A stretch of 64,000 bases of DNA from Escherichia phage vB_EcoM_SP13, in sequence record OP352608; one strand, 5' to 3'. Shown piece by piece: positions 7,579 through 64,000 of this stretch. The position numbers and the translations under genes are program-made. The number at the start of each line of letters is the position of its first letter. Positions within the stretch are counted from its first letter, which is position 1. The notes beneath the pieces are model-generated. The model worked only from the letters and a program-made list of their open reading frames with translations, ran no database searches and was not told the DNA's origin.

Positions 7579-7619
7579 ATTCATCGGCAAAGGATTGCCG
7601 CGAGTTTTATACGTATAAT

Positions 7620-7943: not shown

Positions 7944-7972
7944 TTGCCTAAGTTTTTTTCATTAGATATAAT
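7944..7972 (+). promoter_or_regulatory. sigma70-like promoter TTGCCT-N17-TATAAT
   Basis: -35 at 7944-7949, -10 at 7967-7972, followed by GAGGGTGG RBS and ATG 8002. Confidence 0.5.
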
Positions 7973-47292: not shown

Positions 47293-48375
47293 ATGGCTAG
47301 TTTAAGAGAAGAAGCAAAAATAATTGAAGAGTTTTTAACAGAACTCCAGAGAGGCATCCCAGAAGATGAGCGCGTCATGACGGTGTTTGCTCCTGAAGCA
47401 ACGGTGCAGACTGACGAGCGCGGAAAGAAGATTAACAGCAGCTTCTGGCCTAAGCCTTGGAAGTTGGGCAAGCCGCTCATGCAGCACCAAAACGGCTATG
47501 CTTGCATCAGTTCAATGCGTAAGTCTCCCAACCCAAAGACGGGTGAGATGCGATACTGGCGTACAGAGTCGGCCTTTGGTCACGGTATGGCGATGATGGT
47601 CGACGACATCGGTCACGGTAAAGGGTCCAAAGGCGATTTAGATTTGGAATTCTTTTTTGAGCGACTGAAGCCGACTGTCATCGTCGAGACTTCACCGAAC
47701 AACCACCAGCTTTGGTACTTCTTTAAAGAACCGATTGACCATCTTATTCAGTTCAAAGCGTTCCTTGGGTCTTTCGTTAACATGGTACTCAAGAAGGGCG
47801 GCGACAACACGATTAAAGACGTAACGCGCGTGGGCCGTGTTCCTGGGTGCATCAATAACAAGCGTGTGACTCACGACGGCCCCTATAAATATGTCGATGA
47901 GAACGGCGACCCGTTCCGCTGCCGACTTGTCCATGCAGACTACTCCTTGCGCTACACCATCGAAGACATTTGTCACGCATTTGGCTTTCACGTCGTCATG
48001 CCGCAAAAGCGTGAGATTCAAATTGACGTCGATGAATACAAGTATGATGCCGTTTGGTATAAAATAGCCCAGCAGATTCTGGCGCGCAACAAGATGGGTG
48101 AAGGGTCTGATGGCGACGTCATCGAGAATATGTCAGGCAAGTGCCGCATAATCTGTCCTTGGGGTGAAGAGCACACCAACGGCGACCCGTATGGCGCGTA
48201 CTTTCGCGGCCCTATCCCTGGTGCAGAACATGAATTTGTGTTCGGTTGCGCCCACGACTGTCACCGGAAAGGGGAAGGCAAGAAAGGTTGGACTGCTTTT
48301 GTTGAAGCAATCGTCATGCCTTATATTGAGAATCAACTTGACATGATAAATCGTCGTGCAGGTGGCATAAAATAG
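47293..48375 (+). CDS. DNA primase (archaeo-eukaryotic primase / Prim-Pol-like) with zinc-binding C-terminus
   Basis: hhhDD motif MAMMVDDIGHG, His motif region, C-terminal CPWGEEH ... CAHDCH cysteine/histidine cluster. Confidence 0.5.
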   Translation: MASLREEAKIIEEFLTELQRGIPEDERVMTVFAPEATVQTDERGKKINSSFWPKPWKLGKPLMQHQNGYACISSMRKSPNPKTGEMRYWRTESAFGHGMAMMVDDIGHGKGSKGDLDLEFFFERLKPTVIVETSPNNHQLWYFFKEPIDHLIQFKAFLGSFVNMVLKKGGDNTIKDVTRVGRVPGCINNKRVTHDGPYKYVDENGDPFRCRLVHADYSLRYTIEDICHAFGFHVVMPQKREIQIDVDEYKYDAVWYKIAQQILARNKMGEGSDGDVIENMSGKCRIICPWGEEHTNGDPYGAYFRGPIPGAEHEFVFGCAHDCHRKGEGKKGWTAFVEAIVMPYIENQLDMINRRAGGIK

Positions 48376-49684: not shown

Positions 49685-51355
49685 ATGTCAATTAATAATG
49701 ACAATCTTCCAGAGGATACAGGTGATGAATTTGGTGCAATCTTTGACGAAATTCAAGATGCAGGCGTTTCGGAAGAAATGCAGGCAGCAGAGCAGCAAGG
49801 CACCAGAGCTAAAATCAGCCTTCAACATAAAGCCGTTGAAAAAGATTCAGAGCGCATGGAATGCTACGGTGAAGAAGACTTGGTTGAAAGAGCACGCTTG
49901 CTCGCCTCACTTCAGGTAATCAAGTTCCCTCACTACAAGCCGACCAAAGATGACTTCGTTCTACAGGCAGACCGGACGAGTGACATGAACCGTTATGCGG
50001 TTTTCGACGCGTTGTTTGATAAGGGAAGTGGCGTTGTTCCATTCCCTCACAAAGATACTTTTCGTGGGCGCTTAGTCGACCATCGCGGCGAAACATTCAC
50101 CGACCGTACTTTGGAAGTCACAGAGATAGTTGCCGCTGTCGACGCAGCAGGATTGTCCAACCCAAACTCACGTCAGGTCGCTCAATCCTATAAGGAATGG
50201 GCCATGCGTTATCAGCGCGACGACCTGATGGACTTCTTCTACAAGAAGCTGCCTGAATGGGACGGTACTGCGCGCATCGAGAAATACCTTATCGAGCTAT
50301 TCCGACCGTTCGATACAGAGTTAAACCGACAAATCGGTGTGTATTTTTGGCTATCGCTCTACAACCGCCTGACCAACCCTGGCTGTCAAGCGCCAATTTC
50401 TATCGCGCTCATCGGCGGCCAGAACGCAGGGAAGAGTTATTTTAGCAAGCTGCTTTGCGAAGCTATTATGAACGACCGCCACGCAACACCGATTCCGTTG
50501 AACTTAGCCGCGCAAAACTTCAACCCGTTCTTGCGAGCTATTACGGGTCGCTCAATTATCGCGAACGTTGGCGAGATGACAGGCTTTAAAAAGGCCGACA
50601 TCGAAAACATGAAAGCATTCCTGACTAAGACGGAAGATGACCTGGACTTCAAATTTGAAGATACGCAGGTTAAACCACGCCAGTGGATTGCGATAATGGA
50701 CGGCAACGAATACGCAGGTATGCAGCGTGATGACACGGGCAACCGTCGTGTGTATCCTATCTTTGTTGGCCAACTCGCCGACAAGGACGGGCAACCGAAC
50801 TGGTCGAAAGACTTCCAAGCTGACCTTTCCACTTTGAAAGAAGACGTTTGGCAATTGATGGCTGAGTGCGCTGCTTGGATGGAGAAGCACGGCGAAGCAG
50901 GTTACAACGCGTTTGTTGGTGAAACATCTCGCATGCTCACTGAGTTTAGTAAGAACGAAATGGAACGTGCACGCGGCGTTATTCGTGATGAGATGGTTGA
51001 CAACGACCTTGTTGAAGTCGTCATTACCGCGCCTTATGACCGACATCACAGCGGACGCTGGCACATAACCAGTGGTGCTATTGCTATGGGATTCAGAGCG
51101 AAGTGCGGCAAGTCGCCTTTCTCTCGTACCCTTGCGCCGCACATGTCGAAGCTTGGTTTTGAGCCTGCAACCTATCGCAACCAGCGCGGTTACTTTACGC
51201 CGCTGATTAAGAATGAAGCAGGAGAATACATTTCTGATTTGATGACCATCTTAGCGTATCTTATCCGCGATGAGTCTGACCCTGAAGATATTGAATTCTT
51301 GAAGAAGGTTATTGAGCGTAAACGTTCTTTGGGAAGAGATAAGGATGAATTCTGA
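49685..51355 (+). CDS. VirE/P4-type primase-helicase family NTPase
   Basis: Walker A IGGQNAGKSYF and downstream NTPase motifs in C-terminal half; 556 aa. Confidence 0.5.
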   Translation: MSINNDNLPEDTGDEFGAIFDEIQDAGVSEEMQAAEQQGTRAKISLQHKAVEKDSERMECYGEEDLVERARLLASLQVIKFPHYKPTKDDFVLQADRTSDMNRYAVFDALFDKGSGVVPFPHKDTFRGRLVDHRGETFTDRTLEVTEIVAAVDAAGLSNPNSRQVAQSYKEWAMRYQRDDLMDFFYKKLPEWDGTARIEKYLIELFRPFDTELNRQIGVYFWLSLYNRLTNPGCQAPISIALIGGQNAGKSYFSKLLCEAIMNDRHATPIPLNLAAQNFNPFLRAITGRSIIANVGEMTGFKKADIENMKAFLTKTEDDLDFKFEDTQVKPRQWIAIMDGNEYAGMQRDDTGNRRVYPIFVGQLADKDGQPNWSKDFQADLSTLKEDVWQLMAECAAWMEKHGEAGYNAFVGETSRMLTEFSKNEMERARGVIRDEMVDNDLVEVVITAPYDRHHSGRWHITSGAIAMGFRAKCGKSPFSRTLAPHMSKLGFEPATYRNQRGYFTPLIKNEAGEYISDLMTILAYLIRDESDPEDIEFLKKVIERKRSLGRDKDEF

Positions 51356-52002
51356 TGAATAAAGCAATCAACATCGCTAAATTCTTTCAACATCTTGGTG
51401 AACTGAACAAAGAAAGTGACGTTCACGGCGAAGAAATGAACCGGATGATTTCAACCGTGTTGCGTGGCTTTGGTTATGATAAGGACTCCATCACTTGCAA
51501 GCGTACAAAACTTGTCGATGAGTCTTATCTTTACTACGTAGAGCTGCGCATTGGTAAAGATGTAATGATTATTGACCCTAAACTGGAAGGGGCGCACTGT
51601 TTTGGCGCTCATCCTCGTGCGAGTGAATTCAAGGGTCGCGGTCGCAACCGAATCCAGAAGCTTGATGACGCAGGCGACTTGAACATTGCCATGTTCCTCA
51701 AAGAGTTCCTTGCGCTACCGAAGGTTGCATCATCCACTGGCCGTGATGACCCTTGCAAGATTGGATTCAGAACTAAAGATTTGCGCAATGCGCTACGCAA
51801 GAAGGGATTTGTGCCTTCTTATGACAACGTCGCCGCGCTGATGGCTTCAATGGAGGAAGCTGAAGCGATGGACAAGGTGCGCGGCTATTTCCTGAATACA
51901 GGCTTCACCATGTATGAATGGCACACGAAGGGATTGACTGTCGCCGACTTCATCTATTCATTAGAGCAGAAGTATGTACGCAATATGCAGGCCACAGGAT
52001 AA
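51355..52002 (+). CDS. hypothetical protein
   Basis: 215-aa ORF overlapping previous stop. Confidence 0.4.
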   Translation: MNKAINIAKFFQHLGELNKESDVHGEEMNRMISTVLRGFGYDKDSITCKRTKLVDESYLYYVELRIGKDVMIIDPKLEGAHCFGAHPRASEFKGRGRNRIQKLDDAGDLNIAMFLKEFLALPKVASSTGRDDPCKIGFRTKDLRNALRKKGFVPSYDNVAALMASMEEAEAMDKVRGYFLNTGFTMYEWHTKGLTVADFIYSLEQKYVRNMQATG

Positions 52003-52041
52003 TTATCATCAAAATATTTGCTTTTCTGACGAGGTGATATT

Positions 52042-52266
52042 ATGATTAATTTAGACAGGATTGAGTTAGCACTTAGTACCTTAATCAAATATTACCAGTT
52101 TGCTTTTAAGGCTAGTTTGTTTGGCTTGTTCAATCCTCATCAAGCAGCAAAGGCGAGAAGCAATGCCAACCGCCTGCGCTGCACTGGTATAGTTATCCAC
52201 GACCGGATATTGACAGAGGGTAGATTCAGCCATGAATACACAGGGGAGAATAACAAATCAACGTAG
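52042..52266 (+). CDS. hypothetical early protein
   Basis: GAGGTGA RBS. Confidence 0.35.
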   Translation: MINLDRIELALSTLIKYYQFAFKASLFGLFNPHQAAKARSNANRLRCTGIVIHDRILTEGRFSHEYTGENNKST

Positions 52267-52437
52267 GGCTTTACAAGTCCTCATCCACTACCTGTCACGC
52301 CTTTATCCAACGGCGCACGAGCAGAATCCAGCGACTGGTAATCTGTTTAAGCGCCGTAACCTTTCGTTAAAAACATTCGCTTTAATCCAATATGACCGCT
52401 ACCTGGACGGGCGCTACTGCGGCCCGAAGGATTCTCT

Positions 52438-52716
52438 ATGATTACTACATACAAAGTATTCTTTGTCAAGTGCACATCATCTATTGATGACCAATTTACT
52501 GCTGGCAAGAATTATCCCGTGATTTCTGAGTCAAAGCTAGATATAATCTTGAACGATCATGAAATCTATGAGCCGATGCCAGCGACTGCGTTTGATGTTA
52601 TCGGTCACGTTCGGATCAAGACGAATGTTGAGACGATGCATGACCCGTTGTTCAAGAAGCAAATCAAGAATGCCATGCAAGACTTTTGCGCGGCCATGTT
52701 TAAATATTATAAGTGA
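52438..52716 (+). CDS. hypothetical early protein
   Basis: 92-aa ORF. Confidence 0.35.
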   Translation: MITTYKVFFVKCTSSIDDQFTAGKNYPVISESKLDIILNDHEIYEPMPATAFDVIGHVRIKTNVETMHDPLFKKQIKNAMQDFCAAMFKYYK

Positions 52717-52723
52717 GTTGAAG

Positions 52724-52945
52724 ATGAGCAAGAAAACCCTTAAGGCTGGCGACCGTATCCGTTGGATGTCAGGACAGAATATGCGCGCAGGCACCATCCT
52801 TGAGCTGGACCAGTACCTTACCGATTCACGCGGTCGCAATCATTACCGCGTTCGAATCGATACAGTAAAAGAAGATGACAAGTCACTGGTTGGTGAAGTC
52901 GTCATCGTAACTCCACGTCAAATCAAGGCGGCTTGTGAAGCGTGA
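52724..52945 (+). CDS. hypothetical small protein
   Basis: 73 aa from ATG 52724. Confidence 0.3.
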   Translation: MSKKTLKAGDRIRWMSGQNMRAGTILELDQYLTDSRGRNHYRVRIDTVKEDDKSLVGEVVIVTPRQIKAACEA

Positions 52946-53099
52946 ATAAATATCAATTTAACGATAATAAAATCAGTAAGGCAGACGCAATCAAGCAGCT
53001 TCGTCGCGTACTTGAAGCCAGCGGTCACACGAAAGAGCGTGCACGCGTCCTGGCCAAAGAGCATTATAAACGTTTTGTGTCACAAATCAGAGGTTAATT

Positions 53100-53582
53100 A
53101 TGATCATCCATCGCCCTTTAATGTTAAGTAAAACAGAAGCAGCAATTATTTTAGCGGCAGCAAGTCAATGTAACGTTCCAATTCCATTAAGGATGAAAAT
53201 AAATAAATTCATCGACAGCGAGTTTGCAGATGTTGAGTCATTCGATATTTTACCGCCAACCAAAAGGCATGTTGAAAGACTTGTACATCACCAATCACGT
53301 TGCGCAAAAGTTCCTATTCAAACTTATGTTGATAAAAAGCCGCGCCTTAAACCTGTTCCGGCTGATAAGATAGAAGTTGGTGACGTTATTGTTTGCGTAT
53401 ATTACGGCAGTCAGATTTTCAATGCTGTTGTAGTAAGGCGATACAGCATGAACGGTTGCCAATACATGGAAGTGACGAACGCAAAGAAAGAACCTGGCAG
53501 CTTGAACGTGGCTTACGCATTAAGGGAATTCAGCAGTCCTTCTTGCACTCTTTATAAGGTACTCGACCATGGCTCATGTTAA
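53100..53582 (+). CDS. hypothetical early protein
   Basis: 160-aa ORF. Confidence 0.4.
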   Translation: MIIHRPLMLSKTEAAIILAAASQCNVPIPLRMKINKFIDSEFADVESFDILPPTKRHVERLVHHQSRCAKVPIQTYVDKKPRLKPVPADKIEVGDVIVCVYYGSQIFNAVVVRRYSMNGCQYMEVTNAKKEPGSLNVAYALREFSSPSCTLYKVLDHGSC

Positions 53583-53916
53583 AGACGAAGTGTTGTTTGG
53601 CGCAGAGATTAAGAAACGTGTCAGAGAAATGGCAGGAGAAGAAAGAGTGAAGTCGCTGCGAAAAGGTTTTGATCACATCAATGGTGTATCCGGCACGAAG
53701 GAGATGGGCGTGTTGGTAAAAGACATTCGCATTGGCGATGTCATGGTCATCGACCGACAAGCACGAGTCGTTATCCAGGTGCAACCGAACGATGATGAAG
53801 GATGTGTCCTATTGAAGCTGAAGAAGCTTTCATCCAGCCCAGCAAAAGCCGTCATCAAGAAGGTCTGGCCCGAAGGATTACGCAAACTCATTCGTCGACC
53901 CGTGGAGAATGTATAA
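53569..53916 (+). CDS. hypothetical early protein
   Basis: 115-aa ORF. Confidence 0.4.
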   Translation: MAHVKDEVLFGAEIKKRVREMAGEERVKSLRKGFDHINGVSGTKEMGVLVKDIRIGDVMVIDRQARVVIQVQPNDDEGCVLLKLKKLSSSPAKAVIKKVWPEGLRKLIRRPVENV

Positions 53917-54152
53917 TGGAAGATTATATCAATGCGATGTACATGGCATTCTATGTCGTGCAACTTCCCAATGGCGCGGTATTTTATGGCGAGTATACCT
54001 TTGACGTTCAATATGACGTTTCAGAGCGTACAGTGTTAACAAGGGAGTTGATTGCGGACCTTAAGGACGACATAAAACGCGTCGCGCGGCAGCAGTTCAA
54101 TTTGGATGACACCGTCATCGTTCGAATTACCGGAATAACAGAGGTGCAGTGA
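53916..54152 (+). CDS. hypothetical small protein
   Basis: 78 aa, ATG overlapping previous stop. Confidence 0.35.
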   Translation: MEDYINAMYMAFYVVQLPNGAVFYGEYTFDVQYDVSERTVLTRELIADLKDDIKRVARQQFNLDDTVIVRITGITEVQ

Positions 54153-54481
54153 TGACCCGTGATCAGATACTCGCCGCGCATGAGCGTGAGAAGGTGAAAG
54201 AGATTTGTAAAAGGCACGCATTATTTGCTGACTCTTATGTGTTCTTAAAGTCTTGCATCAAACAAAACGCAAGGATGGATAACACTGTATTGACATTCAA
54301 CCTTTTGTCTAACGGAGCAAAGCTTGATGCAATATGCGGGTGCAGAATTGCCAGCATGACGTTTGAACGAGGTGCTCACAAAGACTCTTTCTTCTATCAA
54401 TTCTCCCACCGGACGGGTGATACAAAGATAACAAGGACAAGGCACGAGATAGAGATTGACCTACTCCACTATGTAAAATGA
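54149..54481 (+). CDS. hypothetical early protein
   Basis: 110-aa ORF. Confidence 0.4.
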   Translation: MMTRDQILAAHEREKVKEICKRHALFADSYVFLKSCIKQNARMDNTVLTFNLLSNGAKLDAICGCRIASMTFERGAHKDSFFYQFSHRTGDTKITRTRHEIEIDLLHYVK

Positions 54482-54497
54482 ATGTCAAAGGTGATTT

Positions 54498-54692
54498 ATG
54501 AGTGTTAAACTAGACATACAGAAAACTCTTGATAAGGCCGCTGCAATAAAGAACTTCATGGATTGTTATGCCAGTTGCACGCTTTATGGAAGCGTGCCAA
54601 ACGGCGACGTAAGGCCGGAAAGCATGCTTGAGTGGCTTGTTGAACATCGTTACATCATCGACATAGTTGATGAATACATAAAGCAGAAATGA
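54498..54692 (+). CDS. hypothetical small protein
   Basis: 64-aa ORF with RBS. Confidence 0.35.
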   Translation: MSVKLDIQKTLDKAAAIKNFMDCYASCTLYGSVPNGDVRPESMLEWLVEHRYIIDIVDEYIKQK

Positions 54693-54716
54693 ATATCAAA
54701 AAGGTGAGCTAAATGC

Positions 54717-54745
54717 TTGCCTTTTCTTTTATCAATACTTATACT
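54717..54745 (+). promoter_or_regulatory. sigma70-like promoter TTGCCT-N17-TATACT within conserved 50-bp element
   Basis: Element CAAAAAGGTGAGCTAAATGCTTGCCTTTT... is repeated at 55949. Confidence 0.45.
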
Positions 54746-54776
54746 CTTTTCATCAAGACGAAAAGTGAGGTGAATT

Positions 54777-55094
54777 ATGATTTACTTAGGCATCGACAAG
54801 GAACAAGACGAGCGGTTAGGAAGCGTGTTAAACGTAGACTTGAACACAGCTGTACACATCAAGCCTTGGCCAGATGGCCACCCCGACGTAGTTGTACCCG
54901 TTGCGCCTTGGACGCGTTACGTTGCCATTGACAATAACGGCCTTGTTCATTGTTATTCAGAAAGGCCAACGTATTTCGAGATGTACCGCGAATGGCTCAT
55001 GACTGGATGGGCAAAGGTGCGCTGTTGCGGCGAAGTCGGTCTGGATGGCTGGAGCTTCGAGGCTAGTGAATCGTGTGTCGAGGTGCAATTATGA
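54777..55094 (+). CDS. hypothetical early protein
   Basis: GTGAGGTGA RBS. Confidence 0.4.
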   Translation: MIYLGIDKEQDERLGSVLNVDLNTAVHIKPWPDGHPDVVVPVAPWTRYVAIDNNGLVHCYSERPTYFEMYREWLMTGWAKVRCCGEVGLDGWSFEASESCVEVQL

Positions 55095-55309
55095 ATGGCG
55101 CGCTGGGTAAGTTGTCTTTCAACAAGCGTAATGAGCTGCGCATGGTGTCGCGCTTTCAGTTTGTATTGAACGCAATGTCGAATATTGCCATCACGATGCT
55201 TCGCGCTGATTGCCCTGCTGAAAAGCGTGAGACTTTATTTGAACGTCACAACCAATTACGAAAGGCTGCTTATAAGCTGCAGCAATATGCTATGGAGTAT
55301 GCAAAATGA
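55091..55309 (+). CDS. hypothetical small protein
   Basis: GAGGTG RBS 5 nt before ATG 55091. Confidence 0.35.
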   Translation: MNGALGKLSFNKRNELRMVSRFQFVLNAMSNIAITMLRADCPAEKRETLFERHNQLRKAAYKLQQYAMEYAK

Positions 55310-55689
55310 GAATGAAGCGTTGCCCTTACTGCCACGATGTGATGCACCTTCCACACGAAGAGTTTGTGCAGCACATGACTAACTGTGATAAGAATCCTAA
55401 TAGCGAAAGCCAGCTTGAAGAAAGAATGTTCTTGGTGTCATTCAAAGCTTCTGCTTATGAAGTGCAACGTTCTTACGGCGCACCAAGTACGATTTACTGT
55501 CCAACAACATTGAGAAGTGATATCGACTCAATTCAGCTTGCTGCCTGGATTAACGTTAAGGAAGGAATCACGCCGCACTTTATTGCGCGCATCCAATCTC
55601 AGATTCTACAAATGAAGCGCGAATACAACCGTGACATCACTGAAGTGAAGGTGTTGTCCATCACGCCAATGAATAAGGAGTTGCCGTGA
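55306..55689 (+). CDS. zinc-finger-like protein (putative)
   Basis: CPYCH ... H ... H ... C near N-terminus. Confidence 0.35.
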   Translation: MRMKRCPYCHDVMHLPHEEFVQHMTNCDKNPNSESQLEERMFLVSFKASAYEVQRSYGAPSTIYCPTTLRSDIDSIQLAAWINVKEGITPHFIARIQSQILQMKREYNRDITEVKVLSITPMNKELP

Positions 55690-55946
55690 ACAAGGGTCCG
55701 ATGACTAAGTTAGCCGTTGCCGCGCGGAAGCTTCGACAAGCCGTTAATGGGTCGCGCCCCGTGGTGTTAACACTCGACGACGCAAAGGCACTGGTAGAGC
55801 TACTCGACGAGCACAACCGACGCAAGAATCTGGAGAACACATTACGCTGGCGCGTTACTCCGAAAGGGCGGGAGAGTGAAAAGAAAGCTTACTTGCGACG
55901 CAAACTAAGGTCGGTCGGCCTCCACGAAGAGGCGAAGAATATTTAA
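55686..55946 (+). CDS. hypothetical basic protein
   Basis: 86-aa ORF. Confidence 0.35.
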   Translation: MNKGPMTKLAVAARKLRQAVNGSRPVVLTLDDAKALVELLDEHNRRKNLENTLRWRVTPKGRESEKKAYLRRKLRSVGLHEEAKNI

Positions 55947-55968
55947 TTCAAAAAGGTGATCTAAATGC

Positions 55969-55996
55969 TTGCCTTTTTATTTGCCTGTATTATACT
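55969..55996 (+). promoter_or_regulatory. sigma70-like promoter TTGCCT-N16-TATACT (second copy of conserved element)
   Basis: Same upstream AAAAAGGTGAxCTAAATGCTTGCCTTTT sequence as at 54697. Confidence 0.45.
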
Positions 55997-56024
55997 TAGT
56001 TCATCAAGCAAAGGAGATTTGATT

Positions 56025-56327
56025 ATGAGTTACGACGAAAGGTTTGGCAGAAGTGGATTATTTCACGATGCTGTATGTAAGGACAGCCAAGATGTTGTCT
56101 GCGTATTCAACGTTGATTCTTACGGCGTGCTCAAACCGTTTAAAATCGGTGAGACATACGAATTGTTTCACGGATGGTTGACGCGTCGCAACAACCTTCC
56201 TGATATGGAAGTCTGGTGGATAGAATATAAGGGCCAGGCCCATCGCTGCAAGGTTGTAGAGGTGCGCGGCGTGAACTACTATCAATCTGTTATCAGCGGC
56301 TTTGTTTTTAAAGAGGGTGAGCTATGA
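56025..56327 (+). CDS. hypothetical early protein
   Basis: AAAGGAG RBS before ATG 56025. Confidence 0.4.
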   Translation: MSYDERFGRSGLFHDAVCKDSQDVVCVFNVDSYGVLKPFKIGETYELFHGWLTRRNNLPDMEVWWIEYKGQAHRCKVVEVRGVNYYQSVISGFVFKEGEL

Positions 56328-56629
56328 GTACCGAAGCAATGAAGAAAAAGATTTTGAACGCTTTGCAAGAAGCCGTGAACTGTGGTGCAATTAAAGAGTT
56401 CAAGGAGACGCAAGAAGGCGGTGAGCCAGTATTCTTCTTTAAGAATAAAAAGGACGGTGTAGCGGCAATCATGCTATTAAAGAATAGTGATGATACATTT
56501 ATTCTTTGCGTCGGCGGTTACGACCTTGTCACTGATGATGCATTCATCACTTGTGTCGACGGCCTTAATCCTATGTTGACATTTGAGCGTCGCGCCATCC
56601 GTGTTGCAACGTTTGGAGGGAATTTATGA
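56324..56629 (+). CDS. hypothetical early protein
   Basis: 101-aa ORF. Confidence 0.4.
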   Translation: MSTEAMKKKILNALQEAVNCGAIKEFKETQEGGEPVFFFKNKKDGVAAIMLLKNSDDTFILCVGGYDLVTDDAFITCVDGLNPMLTFERRAIRVATFGGNL

Positions 56630-56811
56630 GTACCGAAGTCCATAACGCTTCAGCAATGGTAAGCTTTTACCGTAACAAAGGCGTGTCACTCGTTAAAACG
56701 CCGCAAGGCATGATGTTCTTTGGCACGCGATTCCTTAAGGCTTCGGAGCGTGAAACGCTGTCCAAGTTTGACCAGAAAACATTGCACGCAGTTTGGAGAA
56801 GACAACAATGA
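56626..56811 (+). CDS. hypothetical small protein
   Basis: 61-aa ORF. Confidence 0.3.
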   Translation: MSTEVHNASAMVSFYRNKGVSLVKTPQGMMFFGTRFLKASERETLSKFDQKTLHAVWRRQQ

Positions 56812-57101
56812 GATTAAGCCTAGCTCAGATTCAGACATTATATCGCATGGAAGACGGCACATCATACATGTTGCGCGGCGACCGCAAGAAGGCTTATGAG
56901 AAACGGCCTTCATTGTTTCACGACGTTAACGCGCCATCAATCCCTGTCTTATTCCGGCTGGGCCTTGTTGACTGGAAAGTGCCAGGAGAGAAAGACCCAA
57001 CTCGATATTCACCGGTTGTGATGACAAAGAAAGGTCGTGCAGCATTAAAAGAAATTAAAGAGCATATGGCTGGAGAAAAATACTATGACATCAAATCTTA
57101 A
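56808..57101 (+). CDS. hypothetical early protein
   Basis: ATG 56808 with GGAG upstream. Confidence 0.35.
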   Translation: MRLSLAQIQTLYRMEDGTSYMLRGDRKKAYEKRPSLFHDVNAPSIPVLFRLGLVDWKVPGEKDPTRYSPVVMTKKGRAALKEIKEHMAGEKYYDIKS

Positions 57102-57265
57102 GGCCCGTTTGTTATTCATCAAGCCGCATGTGCCATATAAGATTAGTAAGCGCACCTGGCTTAACATTTACAACCGCAGCGGCGACCGTTGTCTGTACAA
57201 GGCGAAGCGACGCAAGAAGGTATATTCTTACACAACATCTATCAAATAAATAGGAGAAGACAACA

Positions 57266-57769
57266 ATGAAAATAGAACAACTCGAAGCAGTATTGGAAAT
57301 GGCCGTAAAAGCTGGCGCAATCAGAAGCTATCGCCGCGAGAAGTCGGAAAACGATATGGTGTTTTGTCGCAACTTCTATATCGTCGGCAACCTTAATGAC
57401 CACTACACCATCGAGTGGTATACTAACATGATGACGCTTAAGTCGCGCACCATGGAGCTTTGGTGTGATGACATCTGCTTATCCAACACCCATCCATCCT
57501 ACGACGTTGCATTGGCATTCTATTACGGAAGCCGTCAACCTGTCGCCCACATCGGTGAGAAGCATGAGCATCTTAAGGCGCGACCAGAGGAATCAATGGA
57601 AGGTTGGATTGAATGGGCTGGCGGCAAGAATCCGGTGCCTGGTAAGAAGGTCATGTTGATGTGGAGGAATGAAGGGAAGTCTTCTTATTCATCCAATTCA
57701 GAAGGATGGCTATGGCAGCACAACGGAAGCGTTTATGACATCATTGCTTATCGCGTCGTGGAGGAATAA
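57266..57769 (+). CDS. hypothetical protein with C-terminal DIIAYRVV domain
   Basis: AGGAGAAG RBS; C-terminal domain shared with 58651-59076 product. Confidence 0.45.
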   Translation: MKIEQLEAVLEMAVKAGAIRSYRREKSENDMVFCRNFYIVGNLNDHYTIEWYTNMMTLKSRTMELWCDDICLSNTHPSYDVALAFYYGSRQPVAHIGEKHEHLKARPEESMEGWIEWAGGKNPVPGKKVMLMWRNEGKSSYSSNSEGWLWQHNGSVYDIIAYRVVEE

Positions 57770-58110
57770 TGGAAGAGCAAGAAGGCCGTGAGCTAACATT
57801 TGACGAGCAGATGCAAGAGCTTCAGCGCACATCGCCGCTGCGCGGTAAGGTTGTTGACATTGAGGCGAGCGAATCCAATCTCACCCAGTGGCGACTCAAG
57901 TGCACCAGCACAAGCAAGGATATGTTAAGCTTCAAAGTCGGTCAAACCTATTTGCTTTATGAGGCAAAAGGACTTATTATTGATGGAAGGCAAATCGTCT
58001 TCACGGTAGTCAGCGGAATGCGTTGGTTCGTGAAGCGTGATGTCGAGGGCCGTGATATGTTTGTCGCAGGCTTTCCAGAAACAAGATTCCAATTGGAGAA
58101 GGTTAAATGA
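57769..58110 (+). CDS. hypothetical early protein
   Basis: 113-aa ORF. Confidence 0.4.
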   Translation: MEEQEGRELTFDEQMQELQRTSPLRGKVVDIEASESNLTQWRLKCTSTSKDMLSFKVGQTYLLYEAKGLIIDGRQIVFTVVSGMRWFVKRDVEGRDMFVAGFPETRFQLEKVK

Positions 58111-58436
58111 AATTGAAATGGTACGTGGACCCTGAGCCGACAGGCCAATACAGGTCATTCCAACGTCGCGGCTGGCCGATTTGTTACAGCGGCAATCCCG
58201 ATAAAGAAGATTGCGAGATGCTCGCCGCGATAGTAAGTCTTAACCATGACGGCTATGAAGGCCACTACGCGAGAGCAACCAACCTTCGGCTCAAGGTGCG
58301 CATCCATTTCAAGGTCGCAGGCGAGGACCGCACCGGACTCTCCAAAGAAGAGTTCAGCAGCATTGCCGAAGCAAAGGCATGGCTAAAGGCATTCTACAAG
58401 GCCAATCCTAAATTTTATCCAACTAAGGGTGCATAA
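58107..58436 (+). CDS. hypothetical early protein
   Basis: 109-aa ORF. Confidence 0.4.
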   Translation: MKLKWYVDPEPTGQYRSFQRRGWPICYSGNPDKEDCEMLAAIVSLNHDGYEGHYARATNLRLKVRIHFKVAGEDRTGLSKEEFSSIAEAKAWLKAFYKANPKFYPTKGA

Positions 58437-58654
58437 TGACCGATAAACAATACGCAGTCGGGCAACGTGACATCGAGCAACTCGACGAGGGCGGTTATTA
58501 TACACGCCACATCTATGCTATGACTCAAGAAGGACTTTACAGCAAGTCGGACATCGCCGCTGAACTGGCCCATCGCGACTTGCAAATTGATCTTCTCAAG
58601 ATAGAAGTGCAGAACTTACGAAACACCCTGTTAAACACCTGGAGCTTAAAATGA
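58436..58654 (+). CDS. hypothetical small protein
   Basis: 72-aa ORF. Confidence 0.35.
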   Translation: MTDKQYAVGQRDIEQLDEGGYYTRHIYAMTQEGLYSKSDIAAELAHRDLQIDLLKIEVQNLRNTLLNTWSLK

Positions 58655-59076
58655 TACAGCGTTACGACCTGACATATGATGTGGCATCGGACGATTTCGC
58701 CGTCACTCCCGTTCCAGAAAGTCATGAAGGACGTTTTGTTGCATATGAGGACTATGAATCACTGCTCAAGCTTAATGAGTCGCTAACAAAAGAGATTGAG
58801 CAATACCACGAGCGCATCAAAGTCGCTGAAGATGTTATCAAGCTTTTTAGCGAGGCTGTTGAGAAATACAAGGAGCGCAACGTACCGATTAAGGAGGAAG
58901 CGTGGACCGTGTGGCTTGGTGGTGAGAATCCTGCACCTGGCGAGATTGTTGAATACAAGCTGCGCAATGGAGGTGATAAAGTATTGTCGAGACTTTCTGA
59001 CCATCTTCACTGGGGTCATATAGGAGCACTCAAAGGCAGCGACATCATTGCTTATCGGGTCGTTAAGGAGGGGTGA
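58651..59076 (+). CDS. hypothetical protein with C-terminal DIIAYRVV domain (paralog)
   Basis: C-terminal W-GG-NP-PG ... DIIAYRVV pattern shared with 57266-57769 product. Confidence 0.45.
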   Translation: MIQRYDLTYDVASDDFAVTPVPESHEGRFVAYEDYESLLKLNESLTKEIEQYHERIKVAEDVIKLFSEAVEKYKERNVPIKEEAWTVWLGGENPAPGEIVEYKLRNGGDKVLSRLSDHLHWGHIGALKGSDIIAYRVVKEG

Positions 59077-59609
59077 TGGGTAACGATGCAGGATGGGGCA
59101 AGCCGCGATACTCAAAACTTGCCCACTACTTTGACGACGGCGAGCAAATCAGCTTGTGCGGTAAATTCAACAAAGGCAATACAGAGTTGACCGATGCTCA
59201 AGAAATGGAATCAAGTCTGACAATTGGTGATTGCTCTAAGTGCAGAAAGGCATTATATGAGTTATTGACTCTAAGGGGATTGAAAGCGGCAAAATCAAGG
59301 GATGAATGGGTCATCAACGTCTGTGAAGGGAATCCAGAATTGATGGATGAATTGCTGAAAACAGATGCCGTTAATGCCATTTTCAAAAGGCATTATAAAA
59401 CTTGTATGCGTTACAAGATGAATGATGATATTATTTTTATGGTATTATCTTATTCAAGGAGCACAATGGACGTCAAAAAGCTTCGACAATATCGCCACAA
59501 GGTCATGTGTGAATTGCGCCGTTTAGGAGTTATTGTGGATAATAATGTCATTAAAACGGAGTTAAAGAAGCGTGATAAAAGGAATGGTGACTGGAAGGTC
59601 AGCGGATAA
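59073..59609 (+). CDS. hypothetical Cys-rich protein
   Basis: 178-aa ORF with several Cys pairs (CGKF, CSKCRK). Confidence 0.4.
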   Translation: MMGNDAGWGKPRYSKLAHYFDDGEQISLCGKFNKGNTELTDAQEMESSLTIGDCSKCRKALYELLTLRGLKAAKSRDEWVINVCEGNPELMDELLKTDAVNAIFKRHYKTCMRYKMNDDIIFMVLSYSRSTMDVKKLRQYRHKVMCELRRLGVIVDNNVIKTELKKRDKRNGDWKVSG

Positions 59610-59612
59610 ATA

Positions 59613-59637
59613 AACACTGTTTACGTGTTTTGAAGAA
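59613..59637 (+). terminator. stem-loop after last early gene (AAACAC / GTGTTT)
   Basis: 6-bp inverted repeat followed by TT. Confidence 0.3.
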
Positions 59638-59869
59638 TGGAATGTGTGCAATGGGTCGCTTTATGCGGCCTTTTGTCGTTTGGGTCATGTTTTGCTATGG
59701 AATAATTATGAGGTTGTGTTTTATTTATTAATTGTGCGGAAATATTTAGAAATATATATAAACAGGATTGTTAATATTTTAATAGTTTATGGCTATTGGT
59801 CCGTGGTGTTTGTTAGATTCTATCTATGGATTGGATTTTCTTGGGTCGTGAAACGTGGTTTTGAACACA

Positions 59870-60240
59870 TTTGATACGCCTAAAATACGGTTAAAAATTA
59901 AGCGTATCATGGCTGCAGGCCGCGCCGTTCCTGGATTCCTCTTTTCCAAATTGGTACACCCTTACGTCATGATACGTCATGGTTTTTTATCCGTATCAGT
60001 GTACAACCCTTGCCGCGCCTGGCTTGTACATTAATCTTACGGATGATACGGATAAAACTGAGCATCGTTATATATAGAATTCGAAAAATTAATTAACTCC
60101 AATTTTAAAAACATTTATATTAATTTTTTTCATATCCTCATACTTATGTTAATTTATATATTTAACGTATCATCCGTAAGATATAAGTAAAAACAAAGAC
60201 TTGCGGCAATACGGATGATACGTCATGATACGCTTCAACC
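59870..60240. repeat. palindromic 9-bp repeat element B (homolog of element A)
   Basis: Units at 59965-59980, 59990-59998, 60038-60054 (inverted), 60167-60179, 60211-60234; AT-rich core 60065-60165 resembles 7700-7785. Confidence 0.8.
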
Positions 60241-60461
60241 AGCCAGCAGCGGCTAAGTCGTTGATTTGCATAACAAGCGGCAAAAGGGATGGATTTCTTT
60301 TATACGTATCAAACAGTACACCACGCACCACGGTCCGTTATCCATTCAGCAATATGATTTGTGTACGTTTATAGCCATAATGAACATCAATCTGCACTTG
60401 AATATAATGTCCATCCATTGTATAATTCACACTATTAATTTGCACTATGGGATTTTGCACT

Positions 60462-60935
60462 ATGAGTCAAGATTATGTAGCGATGCCTGAAGACTTTGAA
60501 GACCCGCGATTCGCAGAGCACAATCAGGCTTTATTCGATGAGTTCATTGACCTTGTTATTCAGGGTCATGACATGCGCGCAGCTTTTGCACTAGTATTTG
60601 GAATGGAAGTTGCAACGGATAACTACACTGGCCAGCGAATCCTTTGCACGCAACGCAATCCATACTACAAGATGCGCTTCAAAAAGCGTATGGAAGAGAT
60701 GCCACTCAAGGATTTGTGGAGCGTAAAAGGTGCAATTCACAATTTGGTTAAGCTTGTTCGTGATCCAGAAGTCGCGGCGTCAGCCAAGCTTAATGCTATT
60801 CGTGAACTGAATATCATCTACGGCATCACGATGATTGATGAAAACGGCAATAGTAAAATGGGCCGTTCCATGGACGATTTCTACAAGGATTTTGGAGAGG
60901 CGGCCAAAGAAGGTGAGCAATTCTCCCGCCACTAG
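60462..60935 (+). CDS. terminase small subunit-like protein (tentative)
   Basis: 157 aa; C-terminal AKLNAIRELNIIYG region resembles small-terminase/DNA-binding folds; motif copies overlap its start codon; far from terL in this window. Confidence 0.3.
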   Translation: MSQDYVAMPEDFEDPRFAEHNQALFDEFIDLVIQGHDMRAAFALVFGMEVATDNYTGQRILCTQRNPYYKMRFKKRMEEMPLKDLWSVKGAIHNLVKLVRDPEVAASAKLNAIRELNIIYGITMIDENGNSKMGRSMDDFYKDFGEAAKEGEQFSRH

Positions 60936-60954
60936 CCAATTTGCACTATAAAAC

Positions 60955-60988
60955 GGCCCTAGAACACATTTTCTCCAATTCTAGGGCC
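60955..60988 (+). terminator. stem-loop (GGCCCTAGAA / TTCTAGGGCC)
   Basis: 10-bp perfect inverted repeat with 14-nt loop just after the 60935 stop; no U-tract. Confidence 0.35.
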
Positions 60989-61049
60989 ATCGGTAATACG
61001 ACGGGGAAGGTTACAAACATAAACGCGTTAGAAAGTGTATTATTATAAG

Positions 61050-61313
61050 TCATCTTTTAGTCACCTTACGTAACAATTTACGACCTTCAACCGTCCAATC
61101 GAACGACTCCACCAGCAGATTCGCACTATAACCTAAGACGATGCGTCCCTTCTCGTTATCGACCCGCCAACAAGTCTCGAATAGCATTCGATTTGCACTA
61201 TTAACTATTGCCGCAACTCGCGTAGGATAAGCGCAATTTGAACTATGGTCGTAAAGGGATAAGGTGCGACCACTTCCGATGGACAACGTAGCGATGAGAA
61301 TGAGCGTATTCAT
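61050..61313 (-). CDS. hypothetical protein
   Basis: 87-aa ORF; motif copies fall inside it. Confidence 0.3.
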   Translation of the reverse strand: MNTLILIATLSIGSGRTLSLYDHSSNCAYPTRVAAIVNSANRMLFETCWRVDNEKGRIVLGYSANLLVESFDWTVEGRKLLRKVTKR

Positions 61314-61363
61314 AAGCCACCAATTTGCACTATGAAAAGCGACCCCGAAGGGCCGCCATTCGA

Positions 61364-61990
61364 TTAGATAATCTGGAAGGTATAGGATTTGTTGCCGAAC
61401 TCAAAGTTCAAGCGCCCAGCTTCCTTAAGCTTCATGCGGAAGCGAATGTGCTTGCTATCCGGCAAGCCCAGCACGGCGAACGCTACGCGGACCGATTTGA
61501 ACTCGCCTACACCCTCGACCATAACGCCGTTACGGGTGAGACGCTTTTGCGCCACTTCCTTATTATCCCAACTTTTTGCAATACCTTCGCTATTCGAACG
61601 GCGATGGGAAGGAGTTCCATTTTGCACTACGCAATTTGCACTATCGTTTAGACCGCTCTTAACGAAGGCTTCATACTCTTCGTCGGTCATCGCGTCGAGT
61701 TCTTCCTGGGTCGGCTCGGCCTTTTTAACGACCGCACGCGCCTTATGCGTTTTTACATCGCTGGACACTTCCTCGCGCGACTTCGCTTCGGGGATGGGCG
61801 ATTCGTTGGACGGCTCATCGAGCGCGTTTAAGGACTCGATTAACGCGATTACGCGAGTCTCGGCGGTACGGCGGTCCGCAAATTTCTTAATCGGCTTCGA
61901 ACCGGAATTTGCATTATAAAATGCAACGAGGTCGGCGGTCTTAGTTGCGATAACGTCGCCGCTAGTCGAGAAACGATTTAAGCTAACCAT
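61364..61990 (-). CDS. hypothetical protein
   Basis: 208-aa ORF spanning the visible composition change. Confidence 0.4.
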   Translation of the reverse strand: MVSLNRFSTSGDVIATKTADLVAFYNANSGSKPIKKFADRRTAETRVIALIESLNALDEPSNESPIPEAKSREEVSSDVKTHKARAVVKKAEPTQEELDAMTDEEYEAFVKSGLNDSANCVVQNGTPSHRRSNSEGIAKSWDNKEVAQKRLTRNGVMVEGVGEFKSVRVAFAVLGLPDSKHIRFRMKLKEAGRLNFEFGNKSYTFQII

Positions 61991-62070
61991 AATGAACTCC
62001 TATTTGTTAGGGCGCTAGGCGCGAAAGAATTTTATTAAAGCGCCGCGCACGACGCTCTAAAAATCCTCTC

Positions 62071-62355
62071 TTACGCTTCGACGAGGGAGAAGGTCTCAAA
62101 TTCTTCTTCGCCCATAACGAGTAAGATGTTACCGATTTCGACCGCTTCGAAGAAGTATCCGTTAACGTTTACTTCGAAGGCTTCGCGGTCCGATTCCGGT
62201 AACGCCGCGTAAAGTTTAAAAGCCTCGGCGACCGTTACCCCACCCGCCTCGATGGTCTGGTCTACGTTCGCGGCGTAGACTTCGGATAAAATTTGTTTTA
62301 CGCCGTAGTTCTCGACGATAGCGTTACGGATGGAAGAAACGTTAAGAATAGCCAT
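62071..62355 (-). CDS. small acidic protein, paralog family member
   Basis: Similar to 62990-63280 product (MAILNVSSIRNAIVEN vs MITLSAIRAARVETSEN; VNVNGYFFEAVEIG vs VTINGFVYTITEIG); preceded on minus strand by conserved promoter-hairpin-RBS cassette. Confidence 0.5.
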   Translation of the reverse strand: MAILNVSSIRNAIVENYGVKQILSEVYAANVDQTIEAGGVTVAEAFKLYAALPESDREAFEVNVNGYFFEAVEIGNILLVMGEEEFETFSLVEA

Positions 62356-62423
62356 TTTAAACTCCTAGTTGGGAGAGGCGTTAACGACCTATTCGCTAAC
62401 TCATCCCGTCCCGATATGAGTAC

Positions 62424-62451
62424 ATTATAATATAGTGTAGAAAAAAGTAAA
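62424..62451 (-). promoter_or_regulatory. promoter TTTACT-N16-TATAAT (minus-strand copy of cassette)
   Basis: Minus -35 at 62446-62451 and -10 at 62424-62429; same cassette as 62894-62922. Confidence 0.5.
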
Positions 62452-62495
62452 GCACTTTTTCGATAAAAATGCGATAAATTATTTTATCTTTTTTC

Positions 62496-62523
62496 TTTAC
62501 TTCTTCGTACACTCGCGTATACT
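62496..62523 (+). promoter_or_regulatory. promoter TTTACT-N16-TATACT (cassette copy)
   Basis: -35 at 62496-62501, -10 at 62518-62523; followed by GGGAG RBS and ATG 62580. Confidence 0.5.
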
Positions 62524-62579
62524 TGTTTATATCGAGACGGGCGATGGCCCTTCCTTCTACTAGCATCGGGAGCTTTATT

Positions 62580-62882
62580 ATGACTACTTTAATCTCTTCC
62601 ATCCTTACTTACGACGAAGACCGTTTAACCGTTCGCTCTCTTATCGCCGCCGTTAACGCCGAACTAGAATCTAGCGCCATTAAGGTCCGCGCGGTTGCCT
62701 TCGTCGGTCTTTCCTTCGACGATATCAAGTACGCCGAACGTAGCGCCATCCGCTTCGCGAAGACCGACGACGAAGCCGTTACCCTTATCGAGACGGTTAC
62801 TCCGCGCGGCGAAACGTTAATTATCGTCGAGTATATCGACGTAGAAGGCGATAAGGCTTATAAATATTTTATCGCAAAATAA
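62580..62882 (+). CDS. hypothetical small protein
   Basis: GGGAG RBS 7 nt before ATG 62580. Confidence 0.45.
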   Translation: MTTLISSILTYDEDRLTVRSLIAAVNAELESSAIKVRAVAFVGLSFDDIKYAERSAIRFAKTDDEAVTLIETVTPRGETLIIVEYIDVEGDKAYKYFIAK

Positions 62883-62893
62883 CGAAAAAGTGC

Positions 62894-62922
62894 TTTACTT
62901 CTTAGTACACTAAGACTATAAT
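62894..62922 (+). promoter_or_regulatory. promoter TTTACT-N17-TATAAT followed by 5' UTR hairpin
   Basis: -35 at 62894-62899, -10 at 62917-62922; hairpin GGTAGCGA / TCGCTACC at 62945-62965; AGGAG RBS; ATG 62990. Confidence 0.55.
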
Positions 62923-62989
62923 GTTTTATATCGAGAGGGGATGAGGTAGCGAATAGGTCGCTACCCTCCCGACTAACTAGGAGAATATT

Positions 62990-63280
62990 ATGATCACTTT
63001 ATCCGCTATCCGTGCCGCTCGCGTCGAAACTTCCGAAAACTCTAACGTATTTGGCGAAACCTTAGAGAGCGTTTATCTCTCTAACGTTGACGCGATTATC
63101 GAGTCTATTTATGAGCCGATCAACTTCCTCGACCTTTACAAGTATCGCGATGAGGACATCGTGTCCTACCGCGTAACGATTAACGGCTTCGTTTATACGA
63201 TTACCGAAATCGGCGGCGAATATCTCGCTGTACCGCAACTCGGCGGCGAAGTAACTTACTTTAAAATCGTAAGCCTTTAA
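62990..63280 (+). CDS. small protein, paralog family member
   Basis: Paralog of 62071-62355 product; strong promoter and RBS. Confidence 0.5.
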   Translation: MITLSAIRAARVETSENSNVFGETLESVYLSNVDAIIESIYEPINFLDLYKYRDEDIVSYRVTINGFVYTITEIGGEYLAVPQLGGEVTYFKIVSL

Positions 63281-63291
63281 GGAGAAGAAAA

Positions 63292-63501
63292 ATGATTAAT
63301 ATGAATAACTCTCTTAACGCGCGCGCCCATCGCACCGCCGTCATCGATATGTTCCGTGAGCTTAAGGACTTATGCGATAATATGAACGCGATGTTATCCA
63401 TCGGCGGCTGGGGATACGAAGAAGAAGTTAAATATGCGGTTATGCGTCGCCGTCGCGATAACGTCCTTGGGCAAATTAAACGCGCCGGATTATTCCTTTA
63501 A
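63292..63501 (+). CDS. hypothetical small protein
   Basis: AAGGAGAAG RBS before ATG. Confidence 0.45.
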   Translation: MINMNNSLNARAHRTAVIDMFRELKDLCDNMNAMLSIGGWGYEEEVKYAVMRRRRDNVLGQIKRAGLFL

Positions 63502-63669
63502 TTATAATCAACCACCGTTACTAATAGGCCGCGCTTAGTCGCGGCTTTTCTTCGTCCCTATCTCGGTGCGCTCCTACGCGAAAACTCCTTTATCCTTCCC
63601 TTCGTCGTCGCATAATCTTCGTCGATATGCGCCTTAGTTCGCATAACAGGTATTACGTTAAATGGAGAA

Positions 63670-63940
63670 CATCGCGTAAGTCCTTGTTTTATATAGACAC
63701 CTATATCGGACCGTTAGGGCGGGTCGCGTAAGTCGTTGTTTTATAAAGGCGCAAAACTTTCCCTTCGTTCCGAACTAAAACGAGGAATATGCCGACCCTT
63801 CGTCCGAAAATAGTACGCATGCGAAATTACATGCATCTAGAATAATCCCCACAGATATTATCCTACACGCAATCATTCGCTTTCGAATCATTATGCTTCA
63901 TATTATTATGCGTCGAATCATTCGCTTTCGAATTGTAACG
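63670..63940. repeat. direct repeats in 3' non-coding region
   Basis: CGCGTAAGTC(C/G)TTGTTTTATA twice (about 63673 and 63725); AATCATTCGCTTTCGAAT twice (about 63870 and 63917). Confidence 0.6.
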
Positions 63941-64000
63941 CTGGAAACTGTAACGGCGATTGATTATTGCGTTCGTGTGGTTTTTATGGCATGGGTCTTT

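Follow-up and report, generated by a model that had tools for sequence, protein, structure and literature searches.

The non-coding element upstream of the small terminase gene terS (copy B) and its homologue upstream of the head protease gene (copy A) were analyzed in a 64,000-nucleotide stretch of phage DNA, hereafter the window. The explanation that we favor, and hold at about even confidence, is that both copies are Rep-type replication origins and that copy B is in addition the packaging start. Directly established are the anatomy of the two elements, their homology to each other, the position of the terminus in deposited genomes, the identity of terS, the homology and fold of a phage-encoded helicase, and the conservation of the element pair in three genera. 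An earlier note on this DNA had offered four functions for the two copies without choosing among them, namely an origin, a packaging signal, a regulator-binding site, and a mobile non-autonomous element. The first two are supported by the present analysis, a purely regulatory role appears weak, and the mobile element is rejected.

Around copy B, the DNA matches Escherichia phage F13 at 99.9-100% identity and, at 90-97%, other Wifcevirus phages, namely WFC, WFH, ECML-117, vB_Eco4M-7, and Mansfield and the BASEL phages Bas98-101; by its sequence, the window is from a Wifcevirus, a myovirus of E. coli. The base composition of the whole window is 53.9% A+T, and the genes are laid out as follows.

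995-2455, plus strand: TerL, followed by the portal, head morphogenesis, and head protease genes, to ~29 kb
29.5-47 kb, minus strand: replication and nucleotide-metabolism block
47.3-59.6 kb, plus strand: block opening with the RepB-type primase and VapE-like SF3 helicase genes, followed by many small ORFs

The repeat unit of both elements is a 9-mer, TGATACGGA on the plus strand and TCCGTATCA on the minus strand, which frequently occurs in head-to-tail runs with a period of 9 bp, its GATACG core recurring every 9 bp. The ATCCGTATC/GATACGGAT units (n = 9 in the window) are confined to copy A (7607-7886) and copy B (59872-60313). Exact matches to ATCCGTATC, counted on both strands, number 9 against 0.30 expected from shuffles (largest shuffle count, 2), and all of them are located at 7628-7885 or 59989-60053. 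Matches to the heptamer TGATACG fall inside the two elements (~0.4 kb each) in 17 of 23 cases. A census of 10-mers across the window identified the TGATACG-type units as the most repeated family and ATTTGCACTA as the sole other local family; the units of copies A and B were the only iteron-like family in this census. The features of copy B and its surroundings are listed first, followed by those of copy A.

59653-59671, plus strand: terminator-like hairpin with a T-run, which closes the early gene block upstream of copy B
59872-60313, unstranded: copy B as a whole, ~13 units TGATACGGA or TCCGTATCA around an A+T-rich core, delimited by the unit map and homology to copy A
59872(+) and 59901(-): outermost left units of copy B, from the unit map
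59961-60057, unstranded: left arm of copy B, with units at 59970(+), 59990(-), 60035(+), and 60044(+)
60053-60163, unstranded: A+T-rich core of copy B, 111 bp, 82.9% A+T, aligning with the copy A core
60164-60234, unstranded: right arm of copy B, with units at 60164(-), 60173(-), 60207(+), 60216(+), and 60226(+)
60298-60313, unstranded: distal palindromic unit TTTTATACGTATCAAA, from the repeat search and unit map
60398-60426, plus strand: sigma-70-like promoter TTGAAT-17-TATAAT upstream of terS, 10/12 consensus matches

7585-7600: terminator-like hairpin upstream of copy A
7607-7886, unstranded: copy A as a whole, with the same layout as copy B
7620(-) and 7629(-); 7662(+), 7671(+), and 7680(+): left units of copy A, from the unit map
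7689-7786: core of copy A, 98 bp, 83.7% A+T
7787(-), 7796(-), and 7805(-); 7840(+); 7869(-) and 7878(-): right units of copy A, from the unit map
7944-7972: sigma-70-like promoter TTGCCT-17-TATAAT upstream of the head protease gene, 10/12 consensus matches

Each copy is set between an upstream terminator-like hairpin and a separate downstream promoter, both promoters having been called from consensus matches alone. In both copies, opposed arrays of the TGATACGGA unit lie on the two sides of a ~100-bp core with ~83% A+T, and in copy B we regard this core (60053-60163) as a candidate DNA-unwinding element. Every arm of either copy is itself an inverted repeat with a potential stem of 14-17 bp and DNA fold z-scores of -3.5 to -5.8. 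In the left arm of copy B, TTTTATCCGTATCA and TGATACGGATAAAA are able to pair as a 14-bp stem (z-score -4.97), as are ACGTATCATCCGTA and TACGGATGATACGT in its right arm (z-score -4.18), and copy A as a whole forms an imperfect palindrome of 148 bp. No match to a covariance model of Rfam 15 was obtained in 59400-60700 at E values up to 1. The earlier note had placed copy B at 59870-60240 and had described its units as two 9-mers. The element is real, but its right edge was drawn too short, for it runs to ~60313 and ends with the last TTTTATACGTATCAAA; the two exact 9-mers are likewise real, but they belong to a larger set of ~13 units that are mostly degenerate.

When copy B was used as a blastn query against the whole window, copy A was the sole match (67 nt at 79%, E 6e-10; 152 nt at 69.7%, E 3e-7). 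A MAFFT alignment of the two copies gave a mean column identity of 74% and takes in the inner arms, the A+T-rich core, and the right outer arm. The copies are alignable over ~150-200 bp, and the claim that they share both the units and a homologous AT-rich core was borne out by an alignment that extends well beyond the short 9-mers. Within the genus, copy A is almost invariant across 5 Wifcevirus genomes, core included. The left arm of copy A in Bas101 (PQ850631) carries a clean 9-bp deletion of exactly one unit (TACGGATGA), and such gain or loss by whole units is typical of iteron arrays. The right arm of copy B is nearly invariant across Wifcevirus, and conservation of its left arm is limited to the inner part, from ~60034.

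The left end of the packaged genome maps within the core of copy B. The terminal features are given below, where a slash marks the boundary.

60101/60102, plus strand: left end of the packaged genome, which is the left boundary of the direct terminal repeat, ...AATTAACTCC(A)/ATTTTAAAAAC...
60102-64000, plus strand: right-hand copy of the direct terminal repeat, 3,899 bp, ending ...GGCATGGGTCTTT, the conserved right end

The linear records of WFC, WFH, Ro157lw, and Mansfield, which come from three laboratories, all open at ATTTT..., and the base aligned with their first position is 60102 of the window. The start and terminal repeat of Mansfield were assigned by PhageTerm (PMC6753283), and the terminus evidence as a whole consists of deposited records and PhageTerm predictions. 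Position 60102 lies near the center of the copy B core, at distances of 49 bp (left) and 62 bp (right) from the inner arms; the start codon of terS follows 360 bp downstream. In the genus alignment, the sequence is nearly invariant everywhere to the right of the terminus; to its left, conservation is limited to AATTAACTCC and the inner arm, TGATACGGAT(G/A)A(T/A)AC, and beyond that arm even close relatives are non-homologous. The core of copy B thus carries a conserved junction, AATTAACTCC/ATTTT. Copy A lacks this AACTCC/ATTTT junction, its AACTCC motif included, and is presumably not cut. We consider it highly likely that copy B contains the chromosome end. The packaging signal suggested earlier is therefore supported by the position of the left genome end inside this core, just upstream of terS, and inspection of the deposited linear genomes was positive for copy B only.

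The terminal repeats measure 3,784 bp in WFC, 3,701 bp in WFH, 3,533 bp in Ro157lw, and 3,673 bp in Mansfield, and published values for WFC and WFH are ~3.7 kb each (PMC6563267). WFH, Ro157lw, and Mansfield have an identical right end, ...GGGCATGGGTCTTT, and the window stops at precisely this base. It follows that the window is the final 64 kb of a linear record and that copy B as analyzed here is internal and complete, located where the right-hand repeat is joined. Both boundaries of the Wifcevirus repeat are accordingly defined by sequence and conserved (AACTCC/ATTTT on the left, the end of GGGCATGGGTCTTT on the right), with WFC 81 bp off. In the WFC record (MK373777; 3703-3784), the terminal repeat continues 81 bp past the GGGTCTTT end shared by WFH, Ro157lw, and Mansfield, and this excess reflects either a genuine difference or an inaccurately called boundary. 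The stretch before the right boundary (63850-64000) contains direct repeats of AATCATTCGCTTTCGAAT (2-3 times), TGTAACG (twice), and ATTATGC (twice). No TGATACG units were found at this boundary (63850-64000), and the right-end cut must therefore rely on signals other than those of the left end.

Element pairs of the same kind were found in two other genera, and we regard the pair as ancient. The TerS of Pbunavirus PB1 is 41% identical to that of Wifcevirus, and in PB1 the 550-bp gap upstream of the head protease gene aligns with the gap upstream of terS at 72% column identity; the PB1 elements have the unit GGTAATTTGG and an A+T-rich core with inverted arms as in Wifcevirus. In Serratia phage Hera (Myosmarvirus), the A and B gaps are paralogous over 231 bp (71%, E 1e-21), and the unit is ACTTTTCG. 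Metagenomic relatives keep the layout upstream of terS with the units TGATACGT (contig L028) and TCTTGCGGAT (contig L029), and L028 retains the AATTAACTCC/ATTTTGAA junction. An element pair upstream of terS and the head protease gene is thus common to Wifcevirus, Pbunavirus, and Myosmarvirus, with genus-specific units. Judged from these comparisons of sequence, copies A and B co-evolve within each genome, diverge between genera, and hold the same two syntenic sites.

The terminal repeats of MTx and MyoSmar were predicted by PhageTerm to be 3,566 and 3,559 bp long, respectively (PMC6588376, PMC6753285), and the boundaries of both map into the A+T-rich core of element B, just to the right of the units. 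The Pbunavirus records Ab28 and Pa193 open at the left edge of the element B core; other authors describe Pbunavirus genomes as circularly permuted, and the termini are disputed in the literature. The start of the Hera record was rejected as terminus evidence for copy A; it lies at the edge of the A-type gap, which is a gene boundary, and was treated as arbitrary. The order of genes is primase, small ORF, helicase, terminator, element B, and terS in PB1, and helicase, element B, and terS in Hera. Wifcevirus has ~25 small ORFs on the plus strand (51355-59609) between the helicase gene and copy B. Because the helicase gene directly abuts element B in PB1 and Hera, the 51355-59609 block has the appearance of an accessory region prone to insertions, bounded on its right by the variable left flank of copy B. 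To the left of element B (59640-59870 of the window; L011, 600-800; L013, 690-900), the DNA is rich in G+T, carries TGGATTTTG-like repeats, and lacks homology even among close relatives; the DNA to its right is C+A-rich, with CCACC-type repeats in PB1 and Hera, and a switch in strand composition centered on element B was seen in all three genera.

The palindromic architecture and the presence of two dispersed, non-coding copies would suit relics of a non-autonomous MITE-like mobile element with terminal inverted repeats, as the earlier note had proposed among its options. However, there are exactly two copies, in all three genera they hold the two syntenic positions described above while co-evolving within each genome, and copy A hardly varies in the genus. 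The left homology boundaries read ...CAAAAG/AATCTTACGG in copy A and ...TACATT/AATCTTACGG in copy B, the right ones ...CCTCA/TTTTATCC and ...CTTCA/ACCAGCC, and no target-site duplication was found at these A/B homology boundaries. Descent from a mobile element is contradicted by the lack of target-site duplication and by the fixed synteny; we regard it as extremely improbable and rejected it.

The elements might instead be operator arrays through which a phage regulator controls the promoters of the terS/terminal-repeat genes and of the head protease-scaffold-capsid operon. Both lie upstream of rightward sigma-70-like promoters, inverted repeats fit dimeric regulators, and the core of the PB1-type A element has been predicted as a sigma-70 promoter in JG024 (PMC3008698). 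However, the units are located 60-500 bp upstream of the promoter hexamers and spread over >400 bp, and promoter-like matches within the elements are not enriched over shuffles (7 vs 4.9 and 3 vs 4.0), with only the separate downstream promoters reaching 10/12. Control by a regulator also fails to explain why the genome end lies in the core, why inverted arrays enclose 100 bp of A+T-rich DNA, or why element B directly follows the helicase gene in PB1 and Hera. The placement of each element between a terminator-like hairpin and a separate promoter further weakens a purely regulatory role, which we consider unlikely.

The gene that follows copy B had been described as terS-like, and this description was confirmed.

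60462-60935, plus strand: terS, small terminase subunit, 157 aa
60438-61917, plus strand: array of ATTTGCACTAT, 9 copies with at most 1 mismatch

The terS product was matched by phmmer to the TerS of Pseudomonas phage E217 (PDB 7UXE, E 7.2e-34). Its Mansfield orthologue is annotated as TerS, and most Wifcevirus records give 'hypothetical protein'. The gene sits inside the terminal repeat, ~9 kb from TerL across the genome end, and each packaged DNA molecule therefore has two copies of terS. The adjoining motif array reported earlier was also found, and all 9 copies of ATTTGCACTAT are on the plus strand regardless of gene orientation. The copies at 60438 and 60453 fall directly on the start of terS (ATG at 60462), and in the relative L028 the motif (T)TGCACTA(T/C) occurs six times within 130 bp upstream of terS. 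This direct one-strand array could be the true recognition array of TerS, or a signal for DNA entry or early expression.

Two proteins are candidates for reading the units of copies A and B, TerS and the helicase that opens the rightward early block together with its primase.

47293-48375, plus strand: RepB-type primase, 360 aa, upstream of the helicase (Pfam PF16793, E 4.1e-36; PHROG 4861)
49685-51355, plus strand: VapE-like SF3 helicase, 556 aa (Pfam PF05272, E 1.6e-28)

The helicase sequence matches Rep1 of SaPI1 (PDB 7PDS) with an E value of 4e-11. Its AF2 model, built with 62 homologues, has a pLDDT of 89.8 and shows an H-b-H-H-b-b winged-helix topology at residues 436-504. The best Foldseek match of this model in the PDB is again 7PDS (E 6e-16, ~480 columns, nearly the whole target), ranked above the NrS-1, poxvirus D5/E5, and SaPI5 PriRep5 helicases. 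In every comparison the C-terminus is the least conserved and fastest-evolving part of the helicase, with identities of 53-55, 32-38, 31-33, and 14-21% versus 85, 63, 54, and 55%, respectively, in the core, whereas TerS diverges evenly along its length and has no fast-evolving domain. The helicase is a candidate initiator, which may read the units via its C-terminal winged helix (residues ~436-504). The covariation of units with the helicase C-terminus is weak and suggestive only, because L028 has nearly the same units and yet a C-terminus that is only 53-55% identical. The variability of the C-terminus, the even divergence of TerS, and a report that E217 TerS does not bind DNA to an appreciable extent in vitro (PMC9611059) favor the helicase over TerS as the reader of the units.

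The competing assignment takes the units as TerS binding sites, copy B as a classical pac-type site, and copy A as an uncleaved paralogue that acts in site pairing or in regulation of the head genes. It accounts for a terminus near the middle of the core, between the inverted arms, for the position of terS immediately downstream of copy B, for the mapping of termini to element B in three genera, and for the conservation of AATTAACTCC/ATTTT in B across the genus and in L028 together with its absence from A. The layout is also broadly like pacL-pacC-pacR of SPP1 and the pac site of P1, where hexamer repeats flank the cut and the general arrangement is one of repeats around the cleavage position. 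As in these sites, the cut in copy B is flanked on both sides by short repeats, adjoins the small terminase gene, and lies in A+T-rich, bendable DNA. The virion DNA end falls inside the site, as read from deposited records rather than raw reads, and the site is next to terS. However, SPP1 and P1 package by the headful mechanism and have permuted ends, whereas the direct terminal repeats of Wifcevirus and Myosmarvirus are exact and their right end is precise. The pac sites of SPP1 and P1 are single-copy and a pac site is expected to be unique, whereas here copy A is present as a paralogue, though without AACTCC/ATTTT; this second copy, upstream of the head protease gene in three genera, is the more strongly conserved one and has no known packaging role. 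Appreciable DNA binding by the E217 TerS was not seen in vitro (PMC9611059), no domain of TerS evolves fast in step with the complete replacement of units between genera, a ring-shaped decamer would be expected to read direct rather than two-fold inverted repeats, and the direct one-strand ATTTGCACTAT array at terS offers an alternative TerS target. We regard binding of the units by TerS as possible, though doubtful.

The reading of both copies as Rep-type origins draws on the replicons of the staphylococcal pathogenicity islands (SaPIs), in which the gene order is pri, then rep, then ori immediately 3' of rep (PMC9371898). In the SaPI origin, 6-12 short iterons are divided equally between the two sides of a central A+T-rich region, at least 2 per side being in opposite orientation, and the C-terminal winged helix of Rep reads these iterons, two hexamers probably loading on either side of the core (PMC9371898). 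The same layout is present in copy B, with units at 60035(+) and 60044(+) on the left of the core and at 60164(-) and 60173(-) on the right, and in copy A, with units at 7662, 7671, and 7680 (all plus) on the left and at 7787, 7796, and 7805 (all minus) on the right. A cognate SF3 helicase with a C-terminal winged helix is encoded as well, according to the PF05272 and 7PDS matches and the AF2 model. By analogy with the SaPI Rep layout and given the encoded Rep1-like helicase, the origin function that the earlier note had listed appears supported.

The phage thus resembles a SaPI replicon (Rep1, 7PDS; PriRep5; PMC9371898) in having a self-loading SF3 helicase, an upstream primase gene, and opposed repeats around an A+T-rich core, and in PB1 and Hera the likeness extends to the position of element B directly after the helicase gene. 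In contrast to SaPIs with their 5-6 nt iterons, the unit period here is 9 bp, there are additional outer arrays and two copies per genome, and the core holds the chromosome end. The order of primase and helicase is kept in the window, but copy B lies 8.5 kb past the helicase gene, after many small ORFs. Moreover, the replicon is a 68-kb virulent myovirus known from sequence, rather than a satellite.

The consensus of the DnaA box is TTATNCACA. DnaA boxes were rejected as an explanation of the repeats, since TTATCCGTA (59987-59995 and 7866-7874) is off this consensus at positions 7 and 8. GC/AT skew was rejected as an origin indicator; its extremes at ~29 kb and 46-47 kb coincide with switches of the coding strand, and GC skew in the window simply tracks the direction of transcription.

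Two distant homologous repeat regions per genome are also known from other phages, namely oriL and oriR of SPP1, which are bound by G38P, and ori and crr of P4, which are bound by the alpha primase-helicase. The alpha protein is a helicase of the same D5/VapE-like class as the one encoded here, and its C-terminal winged helix binds the origin. Copies A and B are alike in being a distant homologous pair, binding of both regions by the same initiator being a property of the SPP1 and P4 systems. They differ from those two-site origins in the layout of the repeats and in the coincidence of copy B with the genome terminus, for which, to our knowledge, neither SPP1 oriL/oriR nor P4 ori/crr offers a parallel.

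According to the explanation that we favor, copies A and B would be paralogous cis-acting sites at which a protein-DNA complex assembles. The VapE-like SF3 helicase would bind the unit arrays through its C-terminal winged helix, load on both sides of the core, and then melt it, and the RepB-type primase would prime synthesis. The left chromosome end would be made at ...AACTCC/ATTTT... in the copy B core, next to terS, and the right end would be cut after GGGTCTTT, ~3.5-3.9 kb into the next unit. It is the binding protein of the units, the start of replication at these sites, and the action of terminase as the cutter that we infer. An origin role alone leaves the chromosome end in the core unexplained, which we count against the origin interpretation, and the packaging start is assigned to copy B in addition.

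The two roles of copy B could be coupled. In T7-type concatemer junctions, secondary origins lie near the ends, and local DNA synthesis is probably required to duplicate the repeat. The Wifcevirus ends are like such junctions in having exact terminal repeats with sequence-defined left and right ends; unlike them, the repeat is ~3.5-3.9 kb long with terS and early genes inside it, a phage RNA polymerase is absent, and the left end is placed inside an iteron-flanked A+T-rich core. We suggest, as a rather unlikely but specific extension, that the origin in copy B fires in the concatemer, runs rightward, and locally duplicates the 3.5-3.9 kb repeat, the stationary branch being the substrate of terminase. 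If this were true, firing would set the left end AACTCC/ATTTT and supply the second copy of the repeat, giving a concrete answer to how long direct terminal repeats arise. Copy A would then be an ordinary internal origin, and element B of Pbunavirus would be the start point of headful packaging.

No description of these elements was found in the literature searched, and the only published guess at Pbunavirus origins was derived from GC skew (PMC12390725). What would be new is the fusion of an iteron origin and a packaging start in one element, accompanied by a conserved second copy. Phages of Wifcevirus and Pbunavirus find wide use, actual or proposed, in therapy, and their synthetic reconstruction is under way. 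The conserved element pair provides precise candidates for the origin or origins and the packaging start of these genomes, and it indicates to genome engineers which non-coding stretches to leave undisturbed. If origin function and end formation are coupled, the pair would also be relevant to a long-standing problem, the way in which long terminal repeats become duplicated.
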